64,000 bases of DNA from Myxococcota bacterium (GTDB lineage: Bacteria; Myxococcota_A; UBA9160; SMWR01), in assembly GCA_030749415.1 (NCBI GenBank), contig JASMKC010000045.1, positions 5,897 through 69,896 of the forward strand. Reading direction: 5' to 3'. Each line of letters begins with the position of its first letter. Positions within the stretch are counted from its first letter, which is position 1. Shown here in pieces: positions 9,165 to 60,013 of this stretch. The translations under genes and the position numbers were made by a program. Below the pieces are notes generated by a model. The model made no database searches. It worked only from the letters and a program-made list of their open reading frames with translations, and was not told the DNA's origin.

Positions 9165-9218
9165 AGAATCTCTACTGATCGGACCCGGGGAAAACGCAAC
9201 TCGAACTTCCTATACTCC
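9165..9218 (+). repeat. Dispersed upstream element, copy A
   Basis: AGAATCTCTACTGATCGGACCCGGGGAAAACGCAACTCGAACTTCCTATACTCC; 49/54 identical to copy D (46048-46101) by manual alignment. Confidence 0.9.
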
Positions 9219-9335
9219 TCCGTCGAGCCGGTCGATTGGGGTTTCGCCAAGTCCGATGTCGAAAGGCTTCGCGAACGCGGTTCCATCGCTTGAGGAGTTC
9301 TGGTGCGCCACGCTTTTCCCAGGAAAACCGACACC

Positions 9336-10619
9336 ATGGATCTACTCGATCTCGTCACATTTCCGACCCGCCCGCTGCGCGCGCTGTGTCGCGTCCCCGC
9401 AGATCTCGGGTCCGTGACGAGGCGAGGCGTCGAGGTCCCCTCCCAGGAACTCGGCATCTCGCAGGCGCGGGTAGAAGAGGTCTGGGACCGGGTACAGAAG
9501 CTCTACCGGACCGGCCTTTATCCCGGGATCCAGATCTGTATCCGCCGGGAGGGTCGGGTGGTTCTCCACCGCGCCATTGGGCACGCGCGGGGGAACGCTC
9601 CGGGTCAAGATTCGGCCGACAACGCGACCCTTCTCGACGTGACAACGCCTTTTACGCTCTTTTCGGCTTCGAAGGCGATCACCGCGATGTTGATCCACAA
9701 GCTCGATGAACAGCGGGTTCTTCGCCTGGATGATCGCGTCTGTGATTACGTGCCGGAGTTTGCCGCCCACGGCAAGGCCGAGATCACGTTGCGTCACATC
9801 CTGGCCCACCGGTCCGGGATCCCCCACGTGCCACCCGAGATCATGGACCTCGATCTCCTCGCCGACTCCGAGAACGTCCTCGCGGCCGTCTGCGAAGCGC
9901 GGCCCACATCGAAGGCCGGGCGCCGGCTGGCCTACCACGCGATCAGCGGCGGGTTCGTACTTCGGGCCGTCGTCGAGCGTGTCACGGGCCTCGACCTGCG
10001 TGTCGTCCTCGATCGAGAGATTCGCAGACCGCTCGGTATGCGTTGGTTCTCGTATGGTGTCGGCGCAGAAGACGTCTCACAGGTTGCCGAGAATGCCTTT
10101 ACGGGTTTCCCGCCGGTACCGCCCGTTTCGATGCTGCTCGAGCGTGCGCTTGGCATGGAGCTTCGAGAGGCGGTCGCGCTTTCGAACGATCCACGTTTTT
10201 TCGATGAGGCCATTCCGTCGGCGAACGTGGTCACGACGGCGCTGGAACTGAGTCGTTTCTACCAGTGCCTTCTCGACGGAGGAAAGTGGGAAGCAGAGCG
10301 CGTATTCGAGGCCCGCACGGTGCAGCGGGCGACCGCCGAGCAGAGCTTCATGGAGCTCGACTTCACGCTGGGTCTTCCCATTCGCTACGGACTGGGTTTC
10401 ATGCTCGGAGCCAAGAACCTGAGTCTCTACGGTTCCGATACCCCCGAGGCCTTTGGCCACGTGGGCCTCACCAATATTTTCTCCTGGGCGGATCCCGAGA
10501 GACAGATCGCAGTCGCCATCCTGACGAGCGGGAAGCCGTTCATCAGCCTCGATGTTCTCCGGGTCTTTCAGGTCGAAAGCGCGATCGGGCGGTCGTTCCC
10601 AAAACTCGTGGCGGCATGA
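9336..10619 (+). CDS. Serine hydrolase, beta-lactamase class C / LipE-like
   Basis: SxxK motif FSASK, LRHILAHRSG, YHA, FGHVG. Confidence 0.85.
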   Translation: MDLLDLVTFPTRPLRALCRVPADLGSVTRRGVEVPSQELGISQARVEEVWDRVQKLYRTGLYPGIQICIRREGRVVLHRAIGHARGNAPGQDSADNATLLDVTTPFTLFSASKAITAMLIHKLDEQRVLRLDDRVCDYVPEFAAHGKAEITLRHILAHRSGIPHVPPEIMDLDLLADSENVLAAVCEARPTSKAGRRLAYHAISGGFVLRAVVERVTGLDLRVVLDREIRRPLGMRWFSYGVGAEDVSQVAENAFTGFPPVPPVSMLLERALGMELREAVALSNDPRFFDEAIPSANVVTTALELSRFYQCLLDGGKWEAERVFEARTVQRATAEQSFMELDFTLGLPIRYGLGFMLGAKNLSLYGSDTPEAFGHVGLTNIFSWADPERQIAVAILTSGKPFISLDVLRVFQVESAIGRSFPKLVAA

Positions 10620-10735
10620 TGCGCCGGTCTGGGAAGCATCGAGCAAACAGCCCTCGGTGACACGCGCGGCGCCATGGTTGCCTTTTGTCTGCGCAATGAA
10701 GCCGGCGGCTTCTTGCAGTGGGGCCGTTTCGTTGC

Positions 10736-10963
10736 CCATGGCACGCCGAACCCGGCGCTGCGGAGCATCGAAAGGTGGTTGTCGCCGTCGCCGACCATGC
10801 GGCTGAGCATCACCACCGGGTGTTCAGAGTGCGTATCGAGAGAATCCGCGCAGGCGATGACGTCGCGGTTGGCTTCGACGTATCCGCGCTGGAACGGATG
10901 CAGGGGCTCGGGCTGCTTTCAGAGCATGTCCATCCGCGCCCCGGGCGAGTCGCTGTAGACAAG
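10736..10963 (-). pseudogene. Possible HAD-superfamily remnant
   Basis: Minus-strand reading ...RDVIACADS...MVGDGDNHLSMLRSAGFGVPW resembles HAD motif IV (GDGxND.SML..AGxG); in-frame TGA near 10919. Confidence 0.3.
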
Positions 10964-11532
10964 GGGGGAGCCAGAGCGCCTCAACAAGCCCAGGGCGGGC
11001 CGGTAGAACTCCGGGGCAAAGTAGCCCTTATGCGTCATTTCACCGTGAGCCGCCGGGTGGCGGTGGAGGTGGCGACGGTACACGGGGGCGGGCACGCTCG
11101 GTGAGCCGAAAAGCCCAGAGGGGAGAGCCAGGAATGCCTCTCGGACCGCCCGCTTGGAGATCTTCCCGTGTCAAAGTACCTTAGCAACGTTTCCAAGTGG
11201 CTACTTCTGCGCTCCGGCTGAACCAACGGTCGCACAAAGGCTGCGCCGATTTGAGAGATGCTCTCCCAATGCCCTATCCCACCGTCGCCACCGAAGGGAA
11301 GCCTCGAGCCCTACATCGGCGAGCCAGAGGAATGGGAACGGCCATTCTTTTCGGATTGGCGAGACGGGCGACCGGGGAGGGGGTGCACGAGGAGCGCTCC
11401 GGGCTTGCCTCGAAGGCGGGTGCTTCTGCGCTCGACGTTGGCCACACCGCTGATGCCCGCACTCCTCGTCTTCATGTGCGTGAGCCTCGCCCACCGCGGT
11501 GCGGCCGCGGCGCTCACACCATTCGGGGCCGC

Positions 11533-12903
11533 TTGCGTCGCATTGAACGGGTGCTGGGGTCGGCGCTGCTGCTCTCTGGCGTAGCCGTACAGGCCTTGCC
11601 CACCTCGTCAGCCCGAGCCCAGCCCAGCGCAGACCAGCCCAGCGCAGATCAGCCCAGTGCGGATCATGATTCGGTTGTGACGGAGGCGGATCTTGTCGGC
11701 CCGCTGTCGCCCAACCTACTTGTGCAGTACGCGGCCGAGCACAACCCCGCCATCCGCGCTGCGCGCTTCGCATGGGAGGCAACCAGGGAGCGAATCACCG
11801 TAGAGAGCTGGTACGAAAACCCAATGCTCACTTACACGCCGGACACGGGCTCCATGCCGCAAACTCGGGCGGGCCCTCAGGCCAACGGCGTGAAGGTATC
11901 TCAGGCCATCCCCTTCCCGGGGAAGCTCACGACTCGCGGCCGGGTCGAGGAGGCGCGAGCCGATGCGACCTACCAGGTCCTCGAGGCGACCACTCAAGAG
12001 ATCTCGCGCCAGATCCGAGCAAGGTATGCCGAGTTCTACTTGGCTGCACGCTCGCTTGTGATCAACGACGAGATTACCGATCTGACCCGCCAGTTCTCCG
12101 ACATCGCCCAGGCGAAGTACCAGGTCGGGACCGCGGCGCTGCAAGACGTGATCCTCGCGCAGGAGAAGCTGAGCCGCCTGGCGACCGACGACGTCGAATA
12201 CCGGGGGGACTTCGAGACGGCCATCGGTGCTCTGAACGCGCTCCTCGATCGCCCACCTCGGGCCCCGCTGGGACCTCCCGGGGAGCCGGACGTGAAACCG
12301 CTCACTATCTCGCTCGCACGCCTCATCGAAGCGGCCGATGAGTACCGTCCGGAACTCCTCTCGCAGGACCACACCATCGAAGCGAGCCGTCAATCCCTGC
12401 GGCTCGCGTGGCTGGAATACCTGCCGGACCTGAAGCTTGAAGGTGAGTGGGTCGAGGTGGAGGGCGGCACGAACCCTACTTTCTCCGGTGACGGCGACGA
12501 CATCTGGATGGTGAAGCTCGGCTTCTCGGTTCCCTTGTGGCTGAACCGCATCGGTGCCGAAACGAGCGAGATGGAAGCCCGGCTGCAGCGCGAAAAGTCT
12601 TTCCGGCGAAACCTGAGAAACCAAGTCCTAGATCAGGTGCAGCGGCAGTACGAGCGCGTGCTCGTTGCCGTTCGTACCGAGGAAATCTACCGGAGGACGC
12701 TGATGCCCCAGACCGCCGAGCGCGTCGCAGCCGCACGCGCCGGTTATCAGACGGGGGAGGTGGATTTCCTCACGTTGATCGATAGCCTCAAATCTCTCGA
12801 GGAAGTCTGGCTGCAGCGCGACGGTGCGGTGCGCGACTACGAACAAGGCGTTGCGGGCCTCGAGCGAGCTGTCGGCCAGCCGCTCTCGGATCTGGTTCCG
12901 TAG
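11533..12903 (+). CDS. TolC-family outer membrane efflux protein (CusC/CzcC-like role)
   Basis: Signal-peptide-like N-terminus, AAEHNPAIRAA, SQAIPFPGKL, YQTGEVDFLTLID; first gene of the RND operon. Start uncertain (TTG 11533 or GTG 11551). Confidence 0.85.
   Translation: MRRIERVLGSALLLSGVAVQALPTSSARAQPSADQPSADQPSADHDSVVTEADLVGPLSPNLLVQYAAEHNPAIRAARFAWEATRERITVESWYENPMLTYTPDTGSMPQTRAGPQANGVKVSQAIPFPGKLTTRGRVEEARADATYQVLEATTQEISRQIRARYAEFYLAARSLVINDEITDLTRQFSDIAQAKYQVGTAALQDVILAQEKLSRLATDDVEYRGDFETAIGALNALLDRPPRAPLGPPGEPDVKPLTISLARLIEAADEYRPELLSQDHTIEASRQSLRLAWLEYLPDLKLEGEWVEVEGGTNPTFSGDGDDIWMVKLGFSVPLWLNRIGAETSEMEARLQREKSFRRNLRNQVLDQVQRQYERVLVAVRTEEIYRRTLMPQTAERVAAARAGYQTGEVDFLTLIDSLKSLEEVWLQRDGAVRDYEQGVAGLERAVGQPLSDLVP
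11620..11664 (+). repeat. 15-bp tandem repeat x3 encoding QPSAD linker
   Basis: cagcccagcgcagac / cagcccagcgcagat / cagcccagtgcggat. Confidence 0.85.
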
Positions 12904-12905
12904 CC

Positions 12906-14312
12906 GTGAAAGCAGATGGCATGAACAAAGCAATCACACTCGTCGCATTGGTTTCGATGGCCATCCTGCTGTCGGCCTGTTCGGAGGGACCGGCCTCGAA
13001 GACAAAGGGGCCGGCTGCGTCGGCCTCAAAGACAGAGGCGCCGGCTGACGCCAGAGCCGAGCGAAAGATCCTGTACTGGAAGTCGGCCATGGATCCCACC
13101 TTCGTCTCCAAGAGTCCCGGGAAGGACAAGATGGGCATGGATCTCATGCCGGTCTACGAAGGGGCCGAGTCGCAGGACCCAGCGGAAGCCGTGCGCATCG
13201 ATCCGGCAACCGTGCAGAACATCGGAGTCACCACCGCGGTCGTGGAGCGCAAGCGCCTCACGCGCGAGGTCCGGACCGTGGGCCGCATCGACTACGACGA
13301 GACTACAGTCCGCCACATCGCACCGAAGATCGGCGGCTGGATCGAGGCTCAACACGTGAACTTCGCCGGTCAGGTGGTACAACGCGGTGAGCCCCTTCTC
13401 GAAATCTACAGCCCCGAACTGGTCGCAACCCAGGAGGAATACCTGATTGCGCTGCGCTACCAGAATGTTCTCAGTGAGAGCTCACTGAAGGACAGCTTGG
13501 CGGGAGCGGACGACATCGTGCGCGCAGCCGAGACGAGGCTGCGGTATTGGAACATCACCGACCGCCAGATCAAAGCGCTGCGCGAGCGAGGCGAACTCAC
13601 GCGCACCATGGTTCTCTACGCTCCATTTCGCGGGATCATCGTGGAGCGAAACATCCCGGAGGGCGGCTTCCTCGAGCCGGGGCAGACGGTCTACTCGATC
13701 GCCGACCTCTCCACCATCTGGGTCTACGCCGATATCTACGAATACGAGGCGCCATGGTTGATGATCGGCCAGAAGGCGACGATGACACTCGCCTACGAAC
13801 CAGGGAAAACCTATCGGGGCGCTGTCACATACGTGTACCCCTACCTCAACAACAAGACACGGACGATCGAGGTCCGGATGGAGTTTCCCAATACCTCAGA
13901 CCTCCATCTGAAGATCGATATGTGGGCGAATGTCGTGCTGAAGAGCGAGGTCGCGCGCGAGGGGCTGGCCATTCCGATCCAGGCGGTGATGCGAACGGGT
14001 CAACGCAACGTCGCCATTATCGCGCTGGGAGGGGGTCGATTCGAACCCCGGGACATCCAACTCGGCGCGCAGGCCGGTGATGAGTTCGAGGTCCTCGACG
14101 GTCTCGCGGAGGGCGATCAGATCGTCACCTCCGCCAATTTCCTCATCAACTCCGAGAGCAATCTCGGAGCGGCAAGGCGCAAGATGCTCAGTGCGAACGC
14201 GCCAGCGACTCCGCCGAAGAACGCTGAGGGAGCGACCCAGGAACAAGCGCCCGCCGCCGAGCCCAGCAAGGGCACTCCTGCCGCTGGGCAACCCGGGCGC
14301 GGTCAGGAATAG
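12906..14312 (+). CDS. cusB: RND periplasmic adaptor subunit, Cu/Ag type
   Basis: Met-rich heavy-metal-binding segment YWKSAMDPTFVSKSPGKDKMGMDLMPVY; GRIDYDE, YSPELVATQEEYL, VTSANFLINSES. Confidence 0.88.
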   Translation: MKADGMNKAITLVALVSMAILLSACSEGPASKTKGPAASASKTEAPADARAERKILYWKSAMDPTFVSKSPGKDKMGMDLMPVYEGAESQDPAEAVRIDPATVQNIGVTTAVVERKRLTREVRTVGRIDYDETTVRHIAPKIGGWIEAQHVNFAGQVVQRGEPLLEIYSPELVATQEEYLIALRYQNVLSESSLKDSLAGADDIVRAAETRLRYWNITDRQIKALRERGELTRTMVLYAPFRGIIVERNIPEGGFLEPGQTVYSIADLSTIWVYADIYEYEAPWLMIGQKATMTLAYEPGKTYRGAVTYVYPYLNNKTRTIEVRMEFPNTSDLHLKIDMWANVVLKSEVAREGLAIPIQAVMRTGQRNVAIIALGGGRFEPRDIQLGAQAGDEFEVLDGLAEGDQIVTSANFLINSESNLGAARRKMLSANAPATPPKNAEGATQEQAPAAEPSKGTPAAGQPGRGQE

Positions 14313-14317
14313 CCGCG

Positions 14318-17479: not shown

Positions 17480-17669
17480 ATGCGGCATAGAGACGGGGAT
17501 CGGGCGCCGGAGGCCCTTCGGTCTCTGGGCACGGTTGTTGGCGAAATCGAAGTCCTCGATCTGAACGAGAACCGGATCGCGGAACGCGCGAACCCTGCCT
17601 GCCGCCATGTGCCGATCACTCGGAGCCGAGTCCCCATTTTTTCTCGGTCCACGACTTCTCTCTTCCAGC

Positions 17670-19748: not shown

Positions 19749-19751
19749 CGA

Positions 19752-21563: not shown

Positions 21564-21604
21564 TGGACCTTCTCCAACTGGCCAGCAATCTCCGGCAGCT
21601 GGAT

Positions 21605-33115: not shown

Positions 33116-33286
33116 TCGGCCGAAGGGCGACATTGAGGCTGAACTCGGCTGCAAAATTCATTCCTAGCACTCTCGAATCGCATGAACCAGCAGCGACAAT
33201 GGCAGTTCCTGGGCGAGCCCTCCCTGCCGGGGTCCATGGCGGTCCCCTACCTCCTCGGAGCCAAATGGGTATACCCTCCCCCGCCT

Positions 33287-33349
33287 CTATTTGACAGAAT
33301 CCCTACTCATCGAAGCTTGCCGAAGACGCAGCGCGAATTTCCTGGGCTC
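33287..33349 (+). repeat. Dispersed upstream element, degenerate copy B
   Basis: ctatttgacagaatccctactcatcgaagcttgccgaagacgcagcgcgaatttcctgggctc aligns along the full length of copy D with scattered mismatches. Confidence 0.6.
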
Positions 33350-33382: not shown

Positions 33383-34777
33383 ATGTCGGAGAAGAAATCA
33401 CAATCAGATGAGACCCGGGGTTCAGTCGAATTCCGGACCCTCGCAACGGAATCGCTTTCGCGCGAGACCTTTCCGGTGGGGGGCCAGGATCCCGAAGCCA
33501 CCTACCAGGTGCTCAGCGAAGAACTCCTTCTCGATGGGAACTCGAAGCAGAATCTCGCAACTTTTTGTCAGACCTGGGAAAGCAATCAGGTCCATCGGCT
33601 CATGGACCTCGCGATGGACAAGAACCTGATCGACAAGGATGAGTACCCGCAAACGGCCGAGATCGAGCGTCGCTGCGTCGCTCTTCTGGCCGACCTGTGG
33701 AACGCGCCGAAGGGTAGCCAGGTGGGTTGTTCCACCATCGGAAGCTCCGAGGCAGCGATGCTCGGCGGCATGGCGGCGAAATGGCGTTGGCGGGAAAAGC
33801 GGCGCGCGGCCGGCCTGTCGACCGATCGACCCAATATGGTGTGTGGGAGTGTCCAGATCTGCTGGATAAAATTCGCTCGCTATTGGGACATCGAAATGCG
33901 GGAGATCGAGATGTCGCCCGGCCGCCTTTGCATGGATCCCGAAGAGGTTCTGGAAAAAGTCGACGAAAATACGATTTTTGTCGTGCCCACACTTGGCGTG
34001 ACCTACCATGGTCTCTACGAGGACGTGCAGGCGATCAGTGAGGCGCTCGACGACCTGCAGGCGCGCACGGGTCTCGACATTCCCATCCATGTCGATGCTG
34101 CCAGTGGGGGATTTCTCATCCCGTTCACCAGGGGCGAGCACAAGCCCTGGGATTTCCAGCTCGAGAGAGTCAAGTCGATCAACTCGTCGGGTCATAAGTT
34201 TGGTCTGGCACCGCTCGGTGTCGGGTGGATTCTGTGGCGCGAGAAGAAAGACCTTCCAGAAGAGCTGGTCTTTCATGTGAGCTATCTGGGCGGAGACATG
34301 CCGACCTTCCAGATCAATTTCTCACGGCCGGCGGGGCAGGTCATTGCACAGTACTACGACTTCGTTCGCCTGGGCCGTTCGGGTTACGCCGAGATCCACA
34401 ATGGTTCTCACGAAGTCGCTCAATATTTCTGCTCCATACTGAAGACATTGGGCGAGTTCGACATCATTCACGATGGCGCTCCGGAAATGGGCATTCCTGC
34501 GGTGGTCTGGACGCTACCCGAAGGGGCCAATCCCGGATACAACCTGTATGACCTCGCCGACCGGTTGCGAATGCGGGGATGGCAGGTACCGGCGTACCCA
34601 CTCACCGGGACGTACAAGGCAACCCCAGTGCAACGCATCCTGGTGAAACTCGGCTTTACCAAGGAAATGGCCGATCTTCTGCTGCAGCATGTGAAAGAGG
34701 CTCTGGATTATTTCCAGAAGCACCCGGCCCACACCCCGCTTTCGGCCGAAGAGGGCGGTTCCTACTGCCATCTCTAG
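33383..34777 (+). CDS. gadB: Glutamate decarboxylase
   Basis: GGAGG RBS; LDGNSKQNLATFCQTWE, KNLIDKDEYPQTAEIE, TIGSSEA, HVDAASGG, PLP-lysine SGHK, GWQVPAY. Confidence 0.93.
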   Translation: MSEKKSQSDETRGSVEFRTLATESLSRETFPVGGQDPEATYQVLSEELLLDGNSKQNLATFCQTWESNQVHRLMDLAMDKNLIDKDEYPQTAEIERRCVALLADLWNAPKGSQVGCSTIGSSEAAMLGGMAAKWRWREKRRAAGLSTDRPNMVCGSVQICWIKFARYWDIEMREIEMSPGRLCMDPEEVLEKVDENTIFVVPTLGVTYHGLYEDVQAISEALDDLQARTGLDIPIHVDAASGGFLIPFTRGEHKPWDFQLERVKSINSSGHKFGLAPLGVGWILWREKKDLPEELVFHVSYLGGDMPTFQINFSRPAGQVIAQYYDFVRLGRSGYAEIHNGSHEVAQYFCSILKTLGEFDIIHDGAPEMGIPAVVWTLPEGANPGYNLYDLADRLRMRGWQVPAYPLTGTYKATPVQRILVKLGFTKEMADLLLQHVKEALDYFQKHPAHTPLSAEEGGSYCHL

Positions 34778-36410: not shown

Positions 36411-36582
36411 GCCACGCTCGGGCTGCCAGTCACACACGTCGAGACTGGACTGCGCTCCTGGGGCCACGCTCGATGCCCGAAGAGATCAATCGGGTGATCG
36501 CCGGCCACCTCTCGAACCTGCTCTTCGCACCTACCACAGCCGCGGCAGAAAACCTCGTACTGGAGGGAATCGCGGAGAGCGT
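36411..36582 (+). pseudogene. UDP-N-acetylglucosamine 2-epimerase (WecB/WbpI-like) fragment
   Basis: [15 protein letters not shown] then a frameshift to [33 protein letters not shown]; both ends missing. Confidence 0.75.
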
Positions 36583-36817
36583 GCGCCTCGCGAGCCCGGC
36601 GTCGCCGAGCTCGCGGTACCGGTCTCACCAGAGGTAAAAGGTCGATCTCGCGATTCCGAAGCGGCGGCATGTCGTTCTGATGTTGCCGATCGTCTCGGCG
36701 TACTCGAGGACTCGCTTCTTACGTCTGATTTCACTTTGATCTTCCGTCATCTAGACCCCCTCGGTCAGCCTCTGTCATCGTGGCAGGGTGTCCGACTGAA
36801 TCTGTAATTTCACAACA
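36583..36817 (-). mobile_element. IS481-family-like transposase 5' remnant
   Basis: Left end 5'-TGTTGTGAAATTACAGATTCAGTCGGACACC; ATG 36750 gives [52 protein letters not shown] (HTH with premature TGA); no DDE domain. Confidence 0.7.
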
Positions 36818-39948: not shown

Positions 39949-40186
39949 AATGCTTCAGCCCGCTCGATACCCACCGCGCGCGCGAGTAGATCACAAGAGA
40001 CACTGCCCAAACGACGAAGCGGGGACTCGAGTTCGCAAGCGAGTGCAGGTCTCGCCTCGAGAGCCCGAGAGACCGCATGCTTTCCCCCACCTCCAATTGA
40101 AGGAATGCCTCGTGTGACATCACAGATCCAGCCGGACCTCCTGTCATCGTGATGAGGCAGGGTGAACCAGAGGGCCGAAGTGACCG

Positions 40187-40218
40187 AGGGAAAAGGCAGC
40201 TTGAACTTCCTATGCTCC
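40187..40218 (+). repeat. Dispersed upstream element, copy C (core only)
   Basis: agggaaaaggcagcttgaacttcctatgctcc, 29/32 identical to copy D. Confidence 0.85.
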
Positions 40219-40257: not shown

Positions 40258-41580
40258 ATGACTACAGGAACAACTGCCACGAAACTCCCCAAGACGCCGA
40301 TCGAGCGGGCCTCGAAGCCGCAGCTCGGGACGGACCTCATCCCGAAGGAACGCTACCTCTCACCCGAATTCGCGGAGCTCGAGTGGAAGCACATGTGGAC
40401 GAAAACCTGGCTGCTGGCCGGCTTCGAGCGGGACATTCCCGAGCCGGGTGATTACTTCACCTTCGAGATCGGTCGAGAGTCGATTCTCGTGGTCCGTCAG
40501 CCGTCGGGGGAGATCGGCGCCTGCTACAACGTCTGCACACATCGCGGCAACCGACTGCGCGATCCGGGTCTGGGACACGCGATCTCCTTCTCGTGCACCT
40601 ATCACGCCTGGATGTTCGGCCTCGATGGCGCGCTCGAGTACGCGCAGGACCCCAAGAGCTTTCCGCAGGGATGTCCCGCGGAGACGCTCGGACTCGGCAA
40701 GCTGCGCTGTGAGAGCTGGGCGGGGTTCATCTTCGTGAATCTCGACCCGGACGCCGAGCCCCTGCACGGTTATCTGGACATCATTCCCCGTCACCTCGAC
40801 CCCTATCACTTCGAGGAGATGAGCCTGCTCGACGATGTCACGGTCGAGGTCGCCTGCAACTGGAAGGCCTCGATCGACGCGTTCAACGAGCCCTATCACA
40901 TGGCCGGAACCCATCCGGACGTGCTGATCTTCAGCGACGACGTAAACGTTCCCATCGACTGCTACGAGCGCCACACGCGAATGATCATGCCGTTGGGCGT
41001 TGCGAGCCCCCGTCATCCATCGCACGGCGAGTTGAACGATGAGATCCGAGAGCAATTCCTGCGGCGCTTCGGCATCGATCCAGACACCTTCGAGGGTGGC
41101 GCTGCAGACGTTCGCCCGGCCATTGCGAAGATCGTACGCGAGAAACACGGACCGGCACTCGGTGTCGATTTCTCGGAGCTGCGGGATGAACAGCTCATCG
41201 ACGACTTCCACTACACGATCTTTCCGAACGTCACGTTCAACATCTTCGGGATGACGGCCTGGCTCTTCCGCCATCGGCCGCATCCGACCGATCCGAACCG
41301 GATGTATTTCGATTTCTTCAACCTGATTCGAGGGGCCGGGCGCGGCGAACGCCCGGAGCACGTGGAACTCGTCCTCACCGACGAGCTCGTCGTCGAGCCG
41401 ACGGGTGGCGGCGGAAAATTGATTGGGCAGGATTTCTACAACCTGCCGCGCGTCCAGGCCGGAATGCACTCCGCGGGCTTCGCGGGGCTCCACATGGGAG
41501 ACCAGGAAGTACGAGTCCGGCACTTCCACGAGACGCTTATGTGCTACATCGACGGCAAGGCCCGAGCCAGCGACGCGTGA
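40258..41580 (+). CDS. Rieske non-heme iron oxygenase alpha subunit
   Basis: CTHRGN...CTYHAW Rieske motif; NWK, EPYHMAGTHP, QDFYNLPRVQAG mononuclear iron site. Confidence 0.92.
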   Translation: MTTGTTATKLPKTPIERASKPQLGTDLIPKERYLSPEFAELEWKHMWTKTWLLAGFERDIPEPGDYFTFEIGRESILVVRQPSGEIGACYNVCTHRGNRLRDPGLGHAISFSCTYHAWMFGLDGALEYAQDPKSFPQGCPAETLGLGKLRCESWAGFIFVNLDPDAEPLHGYLDIIPRHLDPYHFEEMSLLDDVTVEVACNWKASIDAFNEPYHMAGTHPDVLIFSDDVNVPIDCYERHTRMIMPLGVASPRHPSHGELNDEIREQFLRRFGIDPDTFEGGAADVRPAIAKIVREKHGPALGVDFSELRDEQLIDDFHYTIFPNVTFNIFGMTAWLFRHRPHPTDPNRMYFDFFNLIRGAGRGERPEHVELVLTDELVVEPTGGGGKLIGQDFYNLPRVQAGMHSAGFAGLHMGDQEVRVRHFHETLMCYIDGKARASDA

Positions 41581-45724: not shown

Positions 45725-46047
45725 TCGTGCCTCCGAGGGCTGTCCGCCGCGGCGTGCCCCACACTCCCGACCTCACGGTCGTCGGGCCCGCATTCGATAC
45801 GCGGGCAAGGCGATAGTAACGCTGGCGCGGCAGCGTCTCCTCCCGCAGGAACCTCGCGCGCCTGGCTCCAGCACTGCTGGCGGTGAGGCGAACGGGCGGC
45901 CGACCTCGGCTGTCGCATGGTGGGCCGGGTGCGCGGGCGCGAAGGCGCCTGACCCGGACGGGCGCACGTGGTGATCGCGCCGCTGCTGATCGGCTGTGCA
46001 GCCCTCCCCTCGTACCGGGCCTGGTCCCCTCCCCGGTCGCTATTGAG

Positions 46048-46101
46048 AGAATCTCTACTGATCGGAGCCAGGGAAAACACAGCTCGAACTTCCTATGCTC
46101 C
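46048..46101 (+). repeat. Dispersed upstream element, copy D
   Basis: AGAATCTCTACTGATCGGAGCCAGGGAAAACACAGCTCGAACTTCCTATGCTCC. Confidence 0.9.
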
Positions 46102-46141: not shown

Positions 46142-46633
46142 ATGCGGAGCCAGCGAGACGCGGTCGTGCGCCCCGGGGCGCGCGTGATCCTGCTCGATCC
46201 GGAGGACCGCGTCCTGCTGCTTCGCGTGGAGGCGCCTCAAAGCGACAAGCCGTTGCTGTGGCTGCCCCCCGGCGGCGCGCTCGAGGCCGGTGAGTCGTTC
46301 GAGGACTGCGCGCGCCGTGAGCTGTGGGAGGAGACCGGTCTCCGCGACGCGGAGCTCGGCCCCTGCGTCTGGCTGCGACAGCACGTCTGGCGGTGGGAAG
46401 ATCGCTTCTACGACTCGCGTGAGCACTACTTCCTGGCACGCGTCGAGTCGTTCGACGTGCAGCCCCAGGCGCTGGAGGGAATGGAGCTGGGAACGCTTGC
46501 TGGGCACCGTTGGTGGAGCCTGCCGGAGCTCGCCGCGTCACAAGAGCTATTCGTTCCTCGCAACCTGGCAAAGCTGCTGACACCGCTAATCGCCGGTGAG
46601 CTGCCGCCGGAGCCGCTGGAGGTGGGGGAGTAG
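46142..46633 (+). CDS. NUDIX hydrolase
   Basis: Nudix box GGALEAGESFEDCARRELWEETG. Confidence 0.9.
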   Translation: MRSQRDAVVRPGARVILLDPEDRVLLLRVEAPQSDKPLLWLPPGGALEAGESFEDCARRELWEETGLRDAELGPCVWLRQHVWRWEDRFYDSREHYFLARVESFDVQPQALEGMELGTLAGHRWWSLPELAASQELFVPRNLAKLLTPLIAGELPPEPLEVGE

Positions 46634-47085: not shown

Positions 47086-47129
47086 GTAGCCAGAGCCAAC
47101 CCTGCTGCGAGAAACCGGGCTGCCGAGGT

Positions 47130-47858: not shown

Positions 47859-47862
47859 AACC

Positions 47863-48969
47863 ATGCCCCACCCCCTTCCCATCCGAATGCCCGCGACCGG
47901 CGAGACCCTCGAGACCGCCTTCGACGCAATCTACAACTGGAACTACGACAGCGATATCGAAGAGCTCCGCACGCTCTACGCCAACGGTGTGACAGCCCAG
48001 TGGAGCAGCCTCCGCGATCTCGATTGGGAGCGAGAGATCGATCGCGAGGCATTTTCCCGCACCTTCAGCATCGCCGGTGTACCGCTGCAGCAGACGCGGT
48101 TCTGGCAGAACCTCGATCCCGACCTGCGTTGGCAGATTTCACGGAAGACCGCGGCCTTCATGCTTTCGACCTTCCTGCACGGCGAGCAGGGGGCGATGAT
48201 GGCGGCCGGTCAGCTCGTGAGTGCCGTCCCCGATATGGACGGGAAGCTCTACGCCGCCACCCAGACCATCGACGAGGCGCGCCACGTCGAGGTCTTCGCT
48301 GCCTACGTCGAGCGACTCGACGAGATCTATCCCATCCCGGTCGGCTTGAAGAACATCATCGACGGCATCATGGCCACGGACAACTGGACGATGAAGGTCA
48401 TGGGAATGCAGATCATGGTGGAGGGGCTGGCGCTCTACTCCTTCCGCGACATGCGCAACACCACTGAGGAGCCCCTGCTCAAGCAGCTACTCACCCTGGT
48501 CGCACGGGATGAAGCGCGGCACACGGGCTTCGGTATCAAGTACCTCTCCCGCGTGGTGCCCAGCTTGAGCCAGCGCGAGCGCGACGCGCTGGAAGACTTC
48601 GGATTCGAAGCCGCACGGCAGCTGGTCGATTCGCGCACTGGCAACTCGATGCGCGCCTCGTTGCTCGCTCTCTGGCTCGACGCCGGCTTCGACGTCCAGC
48701 CAATGTTCAAAGAGCTGGCGCAAGACAGCGAACAGCTACGAGAGGCCATTGCCAGCAAGGGCGGACGCCGCGGTCCACTGCAGGGCTTCGTGCTGCCGAC
48801 CCTGAAGTCCATCGGCCTCTTCAGCGAGCGCATCGAGGGTCACTTCCAGGAGATGTTCGCCCACAATCGCGAAGCCACTTCCGGAGAGTTCACGATGATG
48901 CTGGCCAAGCTGCCCGAAGACCTGGAGGCGTGGGCGATGAGCGAAGGCGAAGAGGCCGTAAGCGCCTGA
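47863..48969 (+). CDS. Ferritin-like diiron protein
   Basis: AAGGAG RBS, 4 bp after the GntR stop; HGEQGA, DEARH (twice), VEGLA carboxylate/His ligand pattern. Confidence 0.8.
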   Translation: MPHPLPIRMPATGETLETAFDAIYNWNYDSDIEELRTLYANGVTAQWSSLRDLDWEREIDREAFSRTFSIAGVPLQQTRFWQNLDPDLRWQISRKTAAFMLSTFLHGEQGAMMAAGQLVSAVPDMDGKLYAATQTIDEARHVEVFAAYVERLDEIYPIPVGLKNIIDGIMATDNWTMKVMGMQIMVEGLALYSFRDMRNTTEEPLLKQLLTLVARDEARHTGFGIKYLSRVVPSLSQRERDALEDFGFEAARQLVDSRTGNSMRASLLALWLDAGFDVQPMFKELAQDSEQLREAIASKGGRRGPLQGFVLPTLKSIGLFSERIEGHFQEMFAHNREATSGEFTMMLAKLPEDLEAWAMSEGEEAVSA

Positions 48970-49140
48970 GCGCCGTCCCGACAGCACCGAGAGTCTGCGG
49001 ATAGTCAGGATGGCACCGCCACCCGCTGAGTCGCTTCACATCTCGGGGCTATTGGGGCCTGATCCCTTCCCCGGTCCCTATTTGCCAGGCGGGGTCCTCG
49101 ACCGAGAGCCAGCCAGGTCCGATACGGCCAGGCGCCACTT

Positions 49141-49170
49141 CCTTGCCCGCGCTCACCTTGCCCGCGCTCA
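49141..49170. repeat. 15-bp tandem duplication
   Basis: ccttgcccgcgctca x2, the second copy including the stop codon of the dehalogenase remnant. Confidence 0.85.
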
Positions 49171-49353
49171 ACTTCCGGTTCGCTCGATGAAGTCGAGCAC
49201 GACCCGGGCGAACTCCTCGCCCCGGTCCTCCTGCACGAAGTGTCCGGCCCCGCGGATCGTCACGTGTGGCTGGTCCTTCGCGCCCGGGACGCGCTCGCGG
49301 AAGCGGGTCTCGAAACCGCGGGTGGCAGGGTCGCCGTCGCTGAAGGCCGTCAG
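49168..49353 (-). pseudogene. Haloalkane dehalogenase-like C-terminal remnant
   Basis: LTAFSDGDPATRGFETRFRERVPGAKDQPHVTIRGAGHFVQEDRGEEFARVVLDFI*; begins at the codon right after the COMT-like stop. Confidence 0.75.
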
Positions 49354-50031: not shown

Positions 50032-50164
50032 GTCGGGGCTCCCATTGCTTGCTCGTGCTGGGTGATTATCGCGCAGGGGTATTCTGCACGCTCCGCCCTT
50101 CTGTGGCGAGATCTGCTTGACCTCGAGAGTCTCCGCCGCGATGCTGGATCGCTGGAGGAAGCCC

Positions 50165-51184: not shown

Positions 51185-51316
51185 CTGCGCTGCGCGGTTG
51201 GCCGCGTGCAGGTGAACCACGCGGAATCTCTCCCCGACGATCCGCGGCGAGTCGCACCGGGGGTGGGTCAGGCGGCCGGAACCGAAACCCGAAGCATTGG
51301 CGATCCGGAAAGCCTT

Positions 51317-53428: not shown

Positions 53429-53558
53429 CCTGAAACTCCCGGCCCCGATTCGCGCGGGACGGCGCTTCACCTGGCGAAGGCCGAGCCCCGCTTCCAACCC
53501 GGGTGGGATGCGAAATGGGTGACAGCCTGTGCGCGAGGCCTCAATTTTCCAATCGAGA

Positions 53559-53775
53559 GGCAGGTCTTCCGGCTCAGGGTTTCCGACCGACCCACCTTCC
53601 CGCCCGGCCCCTTGCAGGCCCGACAGTGGCTTCCGAGTCGATCGCCGTCCGTGAGGACACCCATTACGGCGGCGCGTCCGCGGGGGAATCGAGGCCGGCA
53701 GTCCCCGGCGCTCTCACCCCTCTTCCCTTTTCACCCGCGCCGGCGCAAGCACCGGCACGGGAAACCTTTCGAATC
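53559..53775 (-). ncRNA. Cobalamin riboswitch
   Basis: Minus strand in order: AAAGGTTTCCC, GAAAAGGGAA, GGTGAGA, GCGCCGCCGTAA, GCCACTG, GGGAAGG, AGCCGGAAGACCTGCC. Confidence 0.87.
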
Positions 53776-53783
53776 CGTCGAGG

Positions 53784-53812
53784 ACCCTACGCAGCACCCG
53801 CCCCAATGTCAA
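53784..53812 (-). promoter_or_regulatory. Sigma70-type promoter for the riboswitch/TonB transcript
   Basis: TTGACA-17 bp-TAGGGT on the minus strand just upstream of the riboswitch. Confidence 0.55.
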
Positions 53813-54012
53813 TCAGCGGTCCTGGCAGGTGCGCGATGCGGCCCGGATGATTCCGAGTGGCCCTATGCGAGTACCGCGCAGGATCGTCGAAGAGACCCGG
53901 TGTCTCAACGAAAATTCAGCCGGGAGGCGCTGGCTCCATGGCCCGTCCGAACTTGCGGTGAAACTCGTTCGGCCCGTCCGTCGGTCCCTCGACCCCGTCC
54001 GCTGTCACGGCT

Positions 54013-55293: not shown

Positions 55294-55427
55294 CGCTGCG
55301 TGCCATGAGAGAACGGCTCATGCAGACCGGCCGCCCGCATCACTCCCGGGACCCAGGTTCTGGGCAACCTGCACTCGGCCGGCACCCGTGTCTTCGCAGG
55401 AATCGGCGCCTCTGAGCCGCGCAATCC

Positions 55428-56090
55428 ATGGGGAGTCGTGACATCGTAGACATCGAGACTCGGCCCTGGAAAGTCGGCTTCGACGATCCCGTGCTCGAAG
55501 CAGGCGGCATTGATCGGCCGTTGCTCCGCCGAGGCCACGGCTTCAGATACGACGGTCTCGATATCGACAAGAAGGAGCTGTGCCATACGATCTACGATCA
55601 TTTCTGGGTCCAGTCGATTGAACGATCCGTACCTGAGAATTATCAGATGATCATCTCGATGACATTGCTCGAGCACGTGCAGGACAACGCCGCCAGTGCA
55701 AAGAGCATGTTCGAAGCCCTGCTTCCGTCGGGAACCACCCACCACTACGTTCCGTCCCGATGGCACCCCTACGCGCTGATCCTCCGCCTAGTCGGCCCGA
55801 AGCTGCAGAAGCGCCTTATCACGTCGTTGCGCTCGGAGCAGGAAGCCAGCGTCTCTGGGTATCCGACGTTCTTCAACCAATGTACGTCACGCGCCATGCG
55901 ATTGACTTTCGAACGTGCGGGCTTCGAGGAAGTCGATATCCGGCCGTTCTATCGGGCCAATGGCTATTTCGCCTTCTTCGTACCCGCGTTCGTGCTCTTG
56001 ACGGCGTTCGAAACTCTCTGCAGATACGTCGACTGGTGGTACTTCGCCTCCGGCTTCATCATCAGCGGGCGGAAACCCGAATGCCGCTGA
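55428..56090 (+). CDS. Class I SAM-dependent methyltransferase
   Basis: VLEAGG, YDGLDID, SMTLLEHV, GYPTFF; the N-terminus may be eroded. Confidence 0.68.
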   Translation: MGSRDIVDIETRPWKVGFDDPVLEAGGIDRPLLRRGHGFRYDGLDIDKKELCHTIYDHFWVQSIERSVPENYQMIISMTLLEHVQDNAASAKSMFEALLPSGTTHHYVPSRWHPYALILRLVGPKLQKRLITSLRSEQEASVSGYPTFFNQCTSRAMRLTFERAGFEEVDIRPFYRANGYFAFFVPAFVLLTAFETLCRYVDWWYFASGFIISGRKPECR

Positions 56091-56139
56091 GAAGCTTCGA
56101 GCAGTCCAGGATAGAAGGTGGACTGCAGCTTGGGACGGG

Positions 56140-57513
56140 TCACTGGTCCTCGATATAGCCGAGTGCGCGCAGTCTCTCTCTTTCGACCTCGGACACTGTC
56201 TGCCGCTGAGACTTGAACGCGCGGCCCAGGGTGCCCCGAATCTTCTGGAACTCCCTCCGGAGCTCATCGAGCCGCCCGGGCTGCTCATGCGAGAGATCGG
56301 TCGAGTCGTCAGGCAGCCGATGGAGACGCTCCACGATCCCGGTCGACGAGGAAAGCACGACGTACTTCTCGTCTCCCGTCACCAAGGCGTAGCGCGCAGG
56401 ATTCGACCCGACGAGCGTCGAAAGCACCAGTGCGGGCTCTGCAGCGCTTCGAGAGAACAGATCCCGTCCCTCACTCGATGTCATTGTAATGCCGAGCAAC
56501 GACAAGAGAGTTGGCTTCACGTCGAGGAGGGAGGCGGTGTCACGTCTCCGCTCGCTCTTGCGTCCCGGAGCGCGGATCATCAGCGGGATGCGCACCACCG
56601 GTTCGCCCAGGGTCTCGCCGTGTGCGAACCAGTAGTCATCCTCGCCGAGACCTTCCCCATGGTCGGAGGCAAAGACGACAATCGCATTGTCGAGCGCCCC
56701 ACGCGATTGGAGACCTTCCAGCAGCGCGCTGATCTCGGCGTCGACGAATGCGACCTCTGCGTCGTAGCTCCCGCGGTAGAATCCCACCTCGCGTTCGTCT
56801 CCCAGTTGCTGGTAGTCTGGAATACCACCGATTCCAGAGACGGTTCGAGACATCGGAAGGCTCCGTCTACCGTCCGCGGCGGAGCGCGCCTCCTCGACCA
56901 ACGCATCGCGATAATACTCGGGCGGCGTATAGGGCCCGTGTGGATCCTGAAAGTGGGCCCAGAGAAAGACTGGAACCACATCCTCTCGCTTCAATTCGTC
57001 GAACACCGCGAGCGCAGCTTCGCGGGTCTTTTGAGCAGTCCGCTCGGGATGCTCTCGATTGAGTTCCAGTTGGGTGAACTGGTCATCGTACGCATCGAAT
57101 CCGCGATTGAAGCCGCTGGTGCGGCGCAGTGCGAAGTTGCTGACGACTGCCCCCGTCCGCCAGCCAGCCTCGCGCAACCGCTCCGCCAGTGTCGGAACTG
57201 CATCGGGGACGATGTCGAAATTCCCCATGACCCCCGTGACGAACGGGTGTCGCCCGGTGAGCAGACCGGATACAGAGGGTACGGTGTAGGGGACCGGTGC
57301 GTAGGCATTCTCGAAGACCACACTCTCGGCCGCCAGCCGATCGAGACCGGGTGTGAGCGCGCGACCACTGCCATAAGCACCGAGGCGATCTGCGCGAAGC
57401 GTGTCGACCGTAATGAGAAAGACGTTCGGGGAGTCCGGAGTCTCGACCTCGTTGCACCCGAAGGTCCCGATCAGCGTGGCGATTGCCCACAGTGCAACAA
57501 CCCGCCGTGTCAC
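56140..57513 (-). CDS. Sulfatase-fold hydrolase/transferase, probable lipoprotein
   Basis: Lipobox-like GTFGC; ITVDTLRADRL, YTVPSVSGLLTG, QDPHGPYTPP, SDHGEGLGE, VRIPLMIR; C-terminal LRALGYIEDQ. Confidence 0.88.
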   Translation of the reverse strand: MTRRVVALWAIATLIGTFGCNEVETPDSPNVFLITVDTLRADRLGAYGSGRALTPGLDRLAAESVVFENAYAPVPYTVPSVSGLLTGRHPFVTGVMGNFDIVPDAVPTLAERLREAGWRTGAVVSNFALRRTSGFNRGFDAYDDQFTQLELNREHPERTAQKTREAALAVFDELKREDVVPVFLWAHFQDPHGPYTPPEYYRDALVEEARSAADGRRSLPMSRTVSGIGGIPDYQQLGDEREVGFYRGSYDAEVAFVDAEISALLEGLQSRGALDNAIVVFASDHGEGLGEDDYWFAHGETLGEPVVRIPLMIRAPGRKSERRRDTASLLDVKPTLLSLLGITMTSSEGRDLFSRSAAEPALVLSTLVGSNPARYALVTGDEKYVVLSSSTGIVERLHRLPDDSTDLSHEQPGRLDELRREFQKIRGTLGRAFKSQRQTVSEVERERLRALGYIEDQ

Positions 57514-57612
57514 GCATCGGCTCCCGACAAACCCATCGATTGGTCGACTCTAGCGCGCTCGAGTTGAGCACGCCGAGACCACGGATGCGCTGCGGTGAGA
57601 GCAAACCCCGAA

Positions 57613-57744
57613 ATGGAGGCGGGGAAGAGCATCAAGACCGCGACCTCCTTCCGAGAGAACGTGACGGCCATCGTCGACATGGCTCACATCTCGAGACAAA
57701 ACGGGGCGACCATCGACGACATCTGCCATCTGACAGAGCGCGGA
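57613..57744 (+). pseudogene. Possible collapsed SGNH hydrolase remnant
   Basis: SFRENVTAIVDMAHISRQNGA abutting DDICHLTERG resembles SGNH block III-to-V fragments. Confidence 0.22.
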
Positions 57745-57758
57745 TCAAGCGGTTCACA

Positions 57759-59939
57759 TCACTTCTCGTTCCGATCATTCGGGAGATCCGGCAACGAGCC
57801 CGAGCCAACACCGAGGACCCGGTCGACCCGCTCGAAGCTGGCCAGCAATGAGGCCTTGTACCGAAGCGGATAGGAGGGACCCGCTCGCGGAATCCAGGAG
57901 AGGGTGCTCGAGAAAGTCGCCAGGCATGAGATAACGATGATCCAGGGCATGATCGGAACGAGGGGGTGTTCGCCGGCATCGCGCAGATAGAAGGCATAGG
58001 CGAAGGACAGGAAGGGCAGGAAGTCGAGGGCGTAGCGCTGCTCCACGAGGAAGTAACACATCACCAGAACCAGTTCGGCCAGCAGCAGCATCGCGAACAA
58101 CCGGGCCAGGAGGCTGGCGCTCAGCAGCCGGTAACTCCCCACGGCGGCGCCGATCAACAGCCAAGGCGAGACCACCAACAGCGACACCACGTGGCTCGGC
58201 GCCACCCAGGGATAGAGTTCCGGCGAGAGCACCGGCGAGGACACGCGCACCCAGGGAAAGCTCGAGGAGAACGCGCCCTGACCCGCCCCGAAGTAGTTGG
58301 CGAGGCCATAGAAGAGGCGGCGCGGATCGAAGCCCCAAGCATCGGTCCCCGATGCCAGGTAGGGCAGGTACTTCGGATCGTAGAAGACGGTCACCGAACC
58401 GAAGCGGTCCAGGTTGTACCAGAGCTGGAAAACCAGGCAGGCCACAGCGGGGAGCAGGGCCACGGCGAGGCGTGCCAGGGCGCGGTCACGCGCCTCGCCC
58501 GCGATGGCGTTGCGCAGGGCGAGACTTCCAGCCAACGCGAGAATCCCGTAGAGCGGAACCCCGAAGGTCACGCGGGAGAGGAGCGCCGCTCCGGCAGCGG
58601 CGGACAGCCCGAGAAGAGCTGCTCCTGAAACCTGCTCTGCTTCCAGAAGTCGAGCCGCAAAGTACACGCCCCAGGCGGAGGCGGCGGCACCCCAGACGAT
58701 GGACTCGTGGTACAGGGAGCCGGCGCTCATCACGAAGAGCCAGGGAGAGGCCAGACCGAAGCCCAACAGCGAAAATTCGAGCAGGCGGCGCCGCGTGGGA
58801 AGAGCCAGGTGGGGGTTGCTCGCCAGGGCGTGCTGGAGCAGCAGCGCCAGCGCCCCGAGCGCCAGGACCGCGGCCAACAGGCACGACCCGCGCGACCAGA
58901 GTCCGTAAAGAGAGGGCGCCAACTGGTTGGCGGGCATCCGCAGCAGGGCCGGGAGCGGGCCGAAGTAGGTGTGGATCCGATCCCCTACGTGGAACGCCTC
59001 CCACCGGATCGCCCAGGGTTCGAGGGTCGAGCGGCCCCGGGTAAGGTGATCGGCCAAGGAGTCATAGGCCGCACCGAGCAATTCGGGGCCCGCCAGATGC
59101 CCGCTGAAGCGGGTGAGCAGCAGCAACTGCACCGTCACCACGACCAGCAGCACTCCGAGCGCGCGGGGAGTCCAGAGCCGCTCGCCCGTCCCACCCGGGC
59201 TGCGTGCGACCAGCCCGTAGATCGCCAGGGCACCGAGTGCGGCGGGAGCAAGCCACGCAGATCCCAGCGCCAGGCCGAATACGGCGACCACCGCGTCGTG
59301 GCGTCGCCAGCCGGCGAGAACACGCTGTGCCCTCGGCTGTAACACTGAGAACCGACTTCCGACGAACGTGAGGCCGAACAGCAGCCAGGCCAGAGCCGCC
59401 ACTTGCCAGGGATGCAGGCTCACCCCCGGAGCGACCACCGCGACGTCAGAAATTCTCGCAGCTCCCCCAACGCTTGCGATGCGAAGCGCCTGCACCGGCT
59501 CCGGCAAGCGAAGCGTAGGCCCCCGGCGGGTGCGCAGGCCCGGTGGATCCAGCGCCGGGACATCCCAGACATGCTGGAAGGATTTCCCGTCCGGCGAGGC
59601 GACGATCCGAAGGGTGGCACCGCTCTCCGCCTGGACATCGACTCGGGCGATGCGGGTGGGGTGCAGGAGTTCAACGTCGAGCTTCTGGCCGGGCTCCAGA
59701 AGGAAGCCAGCTTCGCCCGACGCGCCCTCTTCCCCGCGCACCAGGCGGGCAGTCTGCTCCGCCGCACGCCAACCCGAAGGCACGCGTTCGACGACGACGA
59801 CGCGCCCGACCTCGGCCGGACGCTGACAGCTCCACGAAGAGCCTACGGCGGCCAGGACCAGCGGCAGGACAACGAGACTTAACCAGGGCAATCGGAACAT
59901 TTTGCTCCCAGCAGAAAGTCTATGCATCCGATTCGGCAT
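57759..59939 (-). CDS. Hypothetical polytopic membrane protein with N-terminal extracytoplasmic domain (GT-C-like features)
   Basis: 726 aa, lipobox-like N-terminus, beta-rich soluble domain, then about 11-13 TM segments with YDSLADHL, YFGPLPALLRMP, LYHESIVW, RYALDFLP. Start 59939 or 59900. Confidence 0.7.
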   Translation of the reverse strand: MPNRMHRLSAGSKMFRLPWLSLVVLPLVLAAVGSSWSCQRPAEVGRVVVVERVPSGWRAAEQTARLVRGEEGASGEAGFLLEPGQKLDVELLHPTRIARVDVQAESGATLRIVASPDGKSFQHVWDVPALDPPGLRTRRGPTLRLPEPVQALRIASVGGAARISDVAVVAPGVSLHPWQVAALAWLLFGLTFVGSRFSVLQPRAQRVLAGWRRHDAVVAVFGLALGSAWLAPAALGALAIYGLVARSPGGTGERLWTPRALGVLLVVVTVQLLLLTRFSGHLAGPELLGAAYDSLADHLTRGRSTLEPWAIRWEAFHVGDRIHTYFGPLPALLRMPANQLAPSLYGLWSRGSCLLAAVLALGALALLLQHALASNPHLALPTRRRLLEFSLLGFGLASPWLFVMSAGSLYHESIVWGAAASAWGVYFAARLLEAEQVSGAALLGLSAAAGAALLSRVTFGVPLYGILALAGSLALRNAIAGEARDRALARLAVALLPAVACLVFQLWYNLDRFGSVTVFYDPKYLPYLASGTDAWGFDPRRLFYGLANYFGAGQGAFSSSFPWVRVSSPVLSPELYPWVAPSHVVSLLVVSPWLLIGAAVGSYRLLSASLLARLFAMLLLAELVLVMCYFLVEQRYALDFLPFLSFAYAFYLRDAGEHPLVPIMPWIIVISCLATFSSTLSWIPRAGPSYPLRYKASLLASFERVDRVLGVGSGSLPDLPNDRNEK

Positions 59940-59973
59940 GGATCAACACGGCCCAAACCTTGTCCTTGGCACT

Positions 59974-60013
59974 GAGCATAGGCAGTTCGAGCTGCGTTTT
60001 CCCTGGTTCCGAT
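59974..60013 (-). repeat. Dispersed upstream element, copy E
   Basis: Reverse complement atcggaaccagggaaaacgcagctcgaactgcctatgctc, 37/40 identical to copy D. Confidence 0.88.

Follow-up and report, generated by a model that had tools for sequence, protein, structure and literature searches.

Why should five unrelated genes in one stretch of a Myxococcota genome be preceded by what appears to be the same short sequence? The stretch analyzed here, which we call the window, comprises 64,000 nucleotides (C45:5897-69896 of genome G000, an assembly of 4.08 Mb with 66.5% GC in 79 contigs), and a reading made from its sequence alone had described a dispersed element of 31-60 bp, always pointing toward the next gene, and had proposed that it is a portable promoter, that it marks a regulon, or that a small mobile element ends in it. 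Our analysis favours an answer that keeps the last of these in general form and to which we would give roughly two chances in three: the five sites are probably one full and four partial copies of a dispersed, non-coding repeat of ~95 nt, of the non-autonomous kind represented by BOX elements and MITEs (miniature transposable elements with inverted repeats), confined to a marine lineage of Myxococcota. It behaves as a mobile repeat: it has reached some 120 intergenic sites, about 16 of its copies are identical and testify to a recent burst, and it decays by truncation and by tandem duplication of its modules.

The five related sites are real. Re-reading confirmed their positions and sequences, and the core AGGGAAAACGCAGCTCGAACTTCCTATGCTC was matched with one to three mismatches at 9187-9217 (+), 40187-40217 (+), 46070-46100 (+) and 59974-60004 (-), with no match in any of 100 shuffles; the remaining, degenerate copy was recovered by profile. 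What had to be revised is the length of the unit. Aligned together with the DNA around them, 91 distinct copies give a repeat of ~95 nt with a sharp edge on either side (CCCCGTACCGGGGCCTGATCCCCTCCCCCGCCTCTATTGGACAGAATGTCTACTTATCGGACCCAGGGAAAACGCAGCTTGAACTTCCTATGCTC), which makes three of the five sites partial, one degenerate and only copy D a full-length element of the window. The unit is built of three modules. The left one (L) is a GC hairpin of 4-5 bp, CCCCGTAYYGGGG, followed by a C-rich tract; the middle one (M) reads TTGACAGAAT..CTACT.ATCGGACCC; and the right one (R) consists of GAAAACGCAGCTYGAACTTCCTAT plus 4-5 variable bases, the tip, and is also written GAAAACGCAGCTYGAACTTCCTATSYKC. 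The commonest tips are CCTATCTGC (23 copies), CCTATGCTC (22) and CCTGTGCTC (8). Scored against the 95-position model, the copies and fragments in the window are the following.

Copy A, 9156-9217, + strand: M and R modules, 5'-truncated (model positions 34-95, E 2.3e-15); ATG at 9336.
Copy B, 33270-33347, + strand: degenerate, with tip CCTGGGCTC (model positions 17-93, E 2.6e-14); ATG at 33383.
Weak L/M piece, 40071-40113, + strand: model positions 12-54, E 0.048.
Copy C, 40182-40217, + strand: R module alone (model positions 60-95, E 1.8e-7); ATG at 40258.
Copy D, 46009-46100, + strand: L, M and R modules (model positions 2-95 of 95, 77.4 bits, E 4.8e-23); ATG at 46142.
Sixth, L-only piece, 49043-49090, + strand: ggggctattggggcctgatcccttccccggtccctatttgcc, 3'-truncated (model positions 6-44, E 8.2e-6).
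Copy E, 59974-60041, - strand: M and R modules, 5'-truncated (model positions 29-95, E 3.8e-10); ATG at 59939.

Copy D and its surroundings recur without change in two further public assemblies, which come from the same population. The L-only piece, which the sequence-only reading had not noted, begins 74 nt past the stop codon of an AurF-like gene, and the weak L/M piece is possibly the 5' part of copy C, separated from it by an insert: the intervening sequence, 40113-40189, matches another repeat family (at C61, C78 and C5). This second dispersed family, of ~230 nt, is also present in the window at 36582-36814, its 75-nt piece lying directly upstream of copy C, and has further copies at C9:13858-14080, C20:114184-114373, C15:4-140, C61:24342-24565 and C1:250-301.

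The genome-wide count that had been proposed as a check returned, at E<1e-3, 114 matches in G000 with a profile of the five copies and 122 with a full-length profile. Seventy of the 122 are full, 26 lack L, 12 consist of R alone and 11 lack R (38 5'-truncated vs 11 3'-truncated). The 94-mer occurs in 15-17 copies that are 100% identical and have unrelated flanks (examples are C28:101354-101447, C47:4023-4116 and C20:104903-104996), many of them at contig ends; these copies are the signature of a recent spread, and they are one cause of the fragmentation of the assembly. The unit is also duplicated internally: R, or parts of L and M, occur in tandem at C69, C12/C8, C78, C9, C49, C23 and C48, the repeat of R being 28 nt long at C69 and forming a 30-nt array where C12 ends and C8 starts, and in the related metagenome-assembled genome (MAG) DT_70 the last 14 nt of an element are doubled. 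The 30-nt, R-derived array (ACGCAGCTTGAACTTCCTCTGCCTATGCTC) runs off both contig ends (C12:50760-50864 and C8:1-133). Upstream of the hairpin, an extension (..CCGCCGACCCGTTGAAATCG) is conserved at C14:5213, C3:49835, C28:88544, C45:1776 and C69:1810, with a hairpin-less relative at window position 224; this hints at a fourth module or a favoured neighbouring repeat.

Identity between copies stops at 94-97 nt, the flanks are unshared and there is no common parent element, which rules out the end of a larger insertion sequence (IS); the sequence-only proposal of a small mobile element is borne out in general form, that of a mobile repeat, by the 122 copies, about 16 of them identical and at unrelated sites, by the breakpoints and by the 22-nt likeness to ISL3 described below. 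The two ends, CCCCGTACCGGGG... and ...CTTCCTATCTGC, are not complementary and show no dyad in the fold, that is, there are no terminal inverted repeats. Among 15 identical copies we found no k-mer (k = 3-8) common to left and right flanks beyond chance at any offset, hence no target-site duplication, and no conserved flank or target motif. The 94-mer folds no better than its shuffles on either strand (z 0.5-0.8), as single-strand DNA likewise, RNAalifold returned an empty consensus without pairs for 81 distinct copies on both strands, and Rfam has no match to the element either at gathering threshold in a scan of the window or at E<=1 for copy D. Missing fold, covariation and Rfam match together rule out a structured RNA, and the hairpin that had been drawn for copy D is not upheld.

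Copies are distributed unevenly. They lie on 36 contigs and are dense on C78, C14, C47, C23, C9, C3, C28 and C45, while contigs totalling 2.2 Mb have none. Ten-kb windows with a copy have a mean GC of 64.0% vs 66.9% for those without (p 7e-16); 20 kb of the window have no synteny in two congeneric genomes, where the genes match separate contigs at 65-84% identity; and the decarboxylase gene downstream of copy B is present in only 6 of 44 genomes of the taxonomic family. Low GC, missing synteny and patchy genes place the element in the accessory fraction of the genome, and because the region is accessory no orthologous loci of copy D or of the decarboxylase gene were found in relatives, empty sites for copy D included. 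This distribution fits a repeat that is tolerated mainly in accessory DNA. Replication-strand bias was not significant in the final set (50/92), with 29/45 at strong GC skew (p 0.07), after contig totals had earlier been suggestive.

The same repeat occurs in another genus of the family (G004, probably the MAG DT_70), in dozens of copies with 75-88% identity, and a scan of public genomes found it in the 'Myxococcales bacterium' MAGs DT_70, DT_69, DT_71, UWMA-0330 and Cli_2 and in 'Deltaproteobacteria bacterium' SP3084. It was also met on small contigs binned to other phyla, several of them identical to contigs of G000 and, judged by that identity, likely mis-binned; matches in Streptococcus were chance matches of 22 nt. 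Plasmid and phage collections contained no match to the element, and we found no description of this repeat family in the literature. Across genera R is nearly invariant and M recognizable, and the linker after the hairpin varies. Since R is the best conserved module between genera and is kept three times more often than L, it is suggested that R would be the essential end. We infer that copying would be carried out by an enzyme whose recognition sequence is the conserved M-R part and whose action leaves the target unduplicated; constant ends and the absence of both a duplication and a target motif would point to a non-DDE enzyme, such as a rolling-circle HUH enzyme, a serine or tyrosine recombinase, or a DEDD enzyme.

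What, then, of the genes? All five window copies are indeed co-oriented with the next gene, and the spacings that had been quoted are correct: the terminal hexamer ends 34 nt before the ATG in copy B, 41 in C, 42 in D, 35 in E and 119 in A; the distance from the copy to the ATG is given as 40 nt for C, 41 for D, 34 for E and 118 for A. Pfam bears out the identities given to the genes 3' of copies A to D (a Beta-lactamase serine hydrolase, a Pyridoxal_deC decarboxylase of the pyridoxal phosphate type, a Rieske plus Ring_hydroxyl_A alpha subunit, and a NUDIX protein), and the fifth gene, 3' of copy E, encodes a 726-aa protein that matched no Pfam family. With gene starts taken from the longest open reading frame, the downstream gene is co-oriented with 64 copies and opposed to 42 in G000 (41 vs 24 in other genomes); in tandem intergenic regions, which are the informative class, the numbers are 30 and 25, and the ratio of divergent to convergent regions, 24:16, is that of the background. 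Because such starts overshoot, those after B and D included, a refined test used the first plausible start after the tip, with a mirror-image test at the L end and 1500 random intergenic points as controls. A gene start lay within 150 nt on the tip side of 35 of 108 copies (co-oriented), on the L side of 25 of 81 and at 534 of the 1500 random points; spacings of 25-50 nt were seen for 8/108, 4/81 and 111/1500, respectively; and a gene 3' end lay within 150 nt of 25/108 tips and 19/81 L ends. This refined genome-wide test gave neither an orientation preference nor a spacing peak relative to genes, and nothing was left of the weak 64:42 co-orientation when starts were placed beyond the tip, with the L side and random points for comparison. 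The sequence-only reading had named random orientation, or a position downstream of genes, as evidence against itself, and this is what the family as a whole displays, with about a quarter of the tips facing gene 3' ends. What the window shows in its co-orientation and its 30-41 nt spacing is local and does not characterize the family.

One insertion sequence has a special relationship with the repeat. An IS of the ISL3 family, in two subtypes with inverted repeats GGCGCTTCAGGCTTTCGTGTGGG and GGCTCTTCCGGGTTTTGTGTGGGTCCGAT and with a transposase that matches DDE_Tnp_ISL3 (4e-37) and HTH_Tnp_ISL3, abuts the element at one fixed position; nine of its ends were found, eight of them at this position, where GAACTTCC is duplicated. 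The sites are C64:1-137, C64:5085-5209, C65:1-125, C5:5384-6441 and C73:18664-18870 in G000, and loci L041, L069 and L087. The reverse complement of the element is, at its positions 18-41, similar to positions 7-30 in the inverted repeat (IR) of ISL3, with 18 of 22 matching and only 1-7 of 2000 shuffles equalling this, and the 22-nt ISL3-like stretch adjoins the position of IS insertion. Compared with a true ISL3 end, which has a terminal IR of the GGCTCTTC type and an 8-bp duplication, the 22 nt are internal, they lack the tip of the IR, and no duplication belongs to the element itself. Because the transposase is undetectable in G004, the ISL3 IS is a lineage-specific exploiter of the element and not its driver. 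Homing at an exact position makes it a clean natural case of an IS that targets a sequence through likeness to its own end.

Copies of the repeat also coincide with the borders of larger blocks of DNA. A 2.0-kb block, 80% identical across genera (C9 31383-33400 in G000, L077 1532-3549 in DT_70), begins in each of the two genomes 30-42 nt beyond a tip and ends, in DT_70, 70 nt before the next copy. At C48 126068-127534 of G000, a glycosyltransferase gene and an inverted pair of degenerate copies stand where the congeneric G001 has ~42 nt instead. DT_71 and G000 share a gene for a protein with an RNA recognition motif (RRM), 99.6% identical, beyond which their sequences part exactly where the L end of a copy lies. 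In DT_70, tips are fused to a transfer-messenger RNA (tmRNA) gene missing the initial ~40 nt and to part of a gene of which G000 has the intact form. The tmRNA copy lies at L101:2635-2986, and its counterpart in G000 (C68, ~66668-67030) has the normal GGGGGCGAUCGGUUUCGACGGG 5' end. As a separate observation, an RRM-domain protein gene stands beside a tyrosine integrase at C20:107200-108701 of G000 and at loci L151-L160, and the cargo past the integrase varies among public metagenome contigs (PQQ/Vgb_lyase, SIS/PfkB/GT4, DUF3631 and others), and the locus looks like an integration hot spot; copies of the element are found among the cargo genes in L153.

How do these results bear on the alternatives? 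If the repeat were a portable promoter or the mark of a regulon, its R module would offer a -35 (GGAAAAC) and a -10 (TATGCT or TCTGC) to an alternative sigma factor (e.g., of the extracytoplasmic function, ECF, type) or to an activator, and so switch on the gene downstream. The five co-oriented copies of the window at their noted spacings, the conservation of R above the other modules across genera and the cruder gene calls of 64 vs 42 and 41 vs 24 speak for it, as does the arrangement GGAAAAC-N16/17-TCTGC, which we take to be loosely like ECF-type promoters and regard as a lead only. The same R module has a would-be spacer that is as conserved as the hexamers, which is not the way of promoters, and the refined test found no tip-side excess of starts and no spacing peak; the tandem intergenic copies are almost evenly divided, a quarter of the tips oppose a gene 3' end and the downstream genes are unrelated and accessory. 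It had been seen correctly that no TTGACA-like -35 is present, the sequence 17 nt upstream of TATGCT reading GGGAAA, and sites of the sigma-70 type (TTGACA- and TATAAT-like hexamers 16-18 nt apart) numbered zero between window positions 40000 and 46400, where copies C and D lie. On balance a promoter or regulon is quite unlikely as an account of the family. Less likely still, and in our view very improbable, is that the element is a relic or derivative of an ISL3 end, a one-ended MITE or solo IR mobilized or generated by the ISL3 transposase. The 18/22 likeness, the recurrent insertion at the same position with GAACTTCC duplicated and the confirmed identity of the transposase would be expected of such a relic, and they are met by the lack of a second inverted repeat and of an 8-bp target duplication belonging to the element, by an IR tip (GGCTCTTCC) that is not at the end of the element, and by an element-rich genome, G004, with at least as many copies and no detectable transposase. 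A better fit is an IS that homes to a sequence like its own end, for which the IS elements described as targeting REP sequences (PMC1525189) are a precedent.

Several points weigh against the reading as a selfish repeat. The foremost comes from the window itself, where a start codon follows at 30-41 nt in four of the five copies (B, C, D and E), half of the eight copies in the 25-50 nt class, vs 4/103 elsewhere; at a background of 7.4% the chance of this is ~1e-4, and a selfish repeat leaves it unexplained. The mobility of the 95-nt unit alone is deduced from the identical copies; we recovered no pair of filled and empty sites differing by 95 nt alone, and all of the breakpoints found involve more DNA than the element. 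No mobilizing enzyme was found either: the ISL3 transposase is not detectable in G004, and Y1_Tnp (PF01797) has no match in either G000 or G004, MAGs that are 89-95% complete. The conservation of R above its flanks across genera could also fit a host function. Finally, the comparison with genes depends on a purpose-built codon-usage caller (2967 genes) and not on a standard annotation.

The spacing in the window and the breakpoints are what recommends a further explanation, in which a gene-capture system other than the integron would use the element, above all its R tip, to join DNA: a site-specific recombinase would place accessory genes some tens of nt downstream, and copies would thus mark the borders of cassettes. 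To the four stand-alone, unrelated genes of the window can be added the inter-genus block that starts 30-42 nt after tips and is bounded by the next copy in DT_70, co-oriented runs of copies 1-2 kb apart in C47, C28, L077, L110 and L153, the divergence of DT_71 and G000 exactly at an L end, the tmRNA copy and gene fragment joined directly to tips, and the 12 copies that consist of R only. A system of this sort should order its sites, and neighbouring copies 150-3000 nt apart are co-oriented in 20 cases and opposed in 16; the family has no genome-wide orientation relative to genes, no recombinase consistently adjoins the copies, and the sixteen identical copies lie amid DNA that is unrelated on both sides. 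Nor is the integron at hand the missing partner. G000 has a complete integron integrase (TIGR02249, 454 bits, cut-off 265) at C20:429-1358, at the start of the contig, with a canonical attI core (ACTAGTTAGAC; GTTAGAC) ~270 nt upstream and no cassette array assembled beside it (C20:1-1358); relatives carry canonical attI and attC, and integrases occur in 19 of 31 relatives, with or without the element, which itself lacks both the R''/L''-L'/R' dyad symmetry of attC and a GTTRRRY core at its tip. We regard a joining site of this kind as unlikely, if worth keeping in view. A slightly fuller version, in which genes of a marine Myxococcota pool would be captured ~30-40 nt past the R tip and the unit would be a recombination site and possibly a transcription signal as well, would explain the window's four genes, the 2-kb inter-genus block and the co-oriented runs, and is, by a shade, the more doubtful of the two. 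Should the coincidence of copies with block borders prove causal, it would point to cassettes being exchanged by some mechanism apart from integrons, in a marine lineage of which little is known.

Two other features of the window deserve mention. A third repeat family, of ~190 nt, is present at 48142-48336, with further copies in C35, C9, C73 (two), C78 and both congeneric genomes at 75-82% identity, and a cobalamin riboswitch (RF00174, 54.7 bits, full model) lies at 53542-53772 on the minus strand.

As a dispersed mobile repeat, the element would be an uncatalogued family, without an Rfam model, of a well-known kind, and its main use would be in annotation, where it accounts for many of the breaks between contigs of these MAGs, labels the part of the genome that is accessory and low in GC, and cautions that repeated upstream sequences need not mean a regulon. 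Among the known systems, the integron attC sites, such as the VCRs of Vibrio, are similar in being near-identical repeats of ~100 nt between accessory genes in a genome with an integrase, with a short distance from repeat to open reading frame in some copies. The present element differs in its mixed orientation, its dispersal over 36 contigs and its lack of attC symmetry; with canonical attI and attC present and no element array on the attI contig, we reject an attC identity. REP, BIME and REPIN sequences are likewise dispersed and intergenic, occur in mosaic arrangements and, according to PMC1525189, serve as preferred landing sites of IS elements, whereas our element is non-palindromic but for the 4-5 bp hairpin at one end, has no Y1_Tnp gene beside it in G000 or G004 and has no significant strand bias (50/92). 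That G000 and G004 yielded no Y1 gene and that there is a single small hairpin speak against the REP/RAYT and IS200/IS605 systems and, along with the lack of a conserved flank, against an IS200/IS605-derived PATE. With MITEs, whether derived from ISL3 or carrying outward promoters as Correia/NEMIS elements do, it has in common a length of ~95 nt, the absence of coding capacity, high copy number, identical copies from a recent burst and a likeness, in part, to the end of an IS; the lack of terminal inverted repeats and of a target duplication excludes a classical MITE, and in G004, likewise rich in the element, the IS that it resembles is not detectable.

The closest parallel is BOX of Streptococcus pneumoniae, a short, non-coding, intergenic repeat with about 100-plus copies composed of the modules boxA, boxB and boxC, any of which can be missing or tandemly duplicated, and with neither a transposase of its own nor inverted ends nor a target duplication. 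The two have no sequence relation, BOX is predicted to fold stably and our element is not, and the lineage here is Myxococcota. In its organization the element is nonetheless like BOX: L-only, M+R, R-only and full copies occur side by side, R is tandemly duplicated, no parent element is shared, and the ~120 modular copies lie between genes with no transposase, inverted ends or target duplication.

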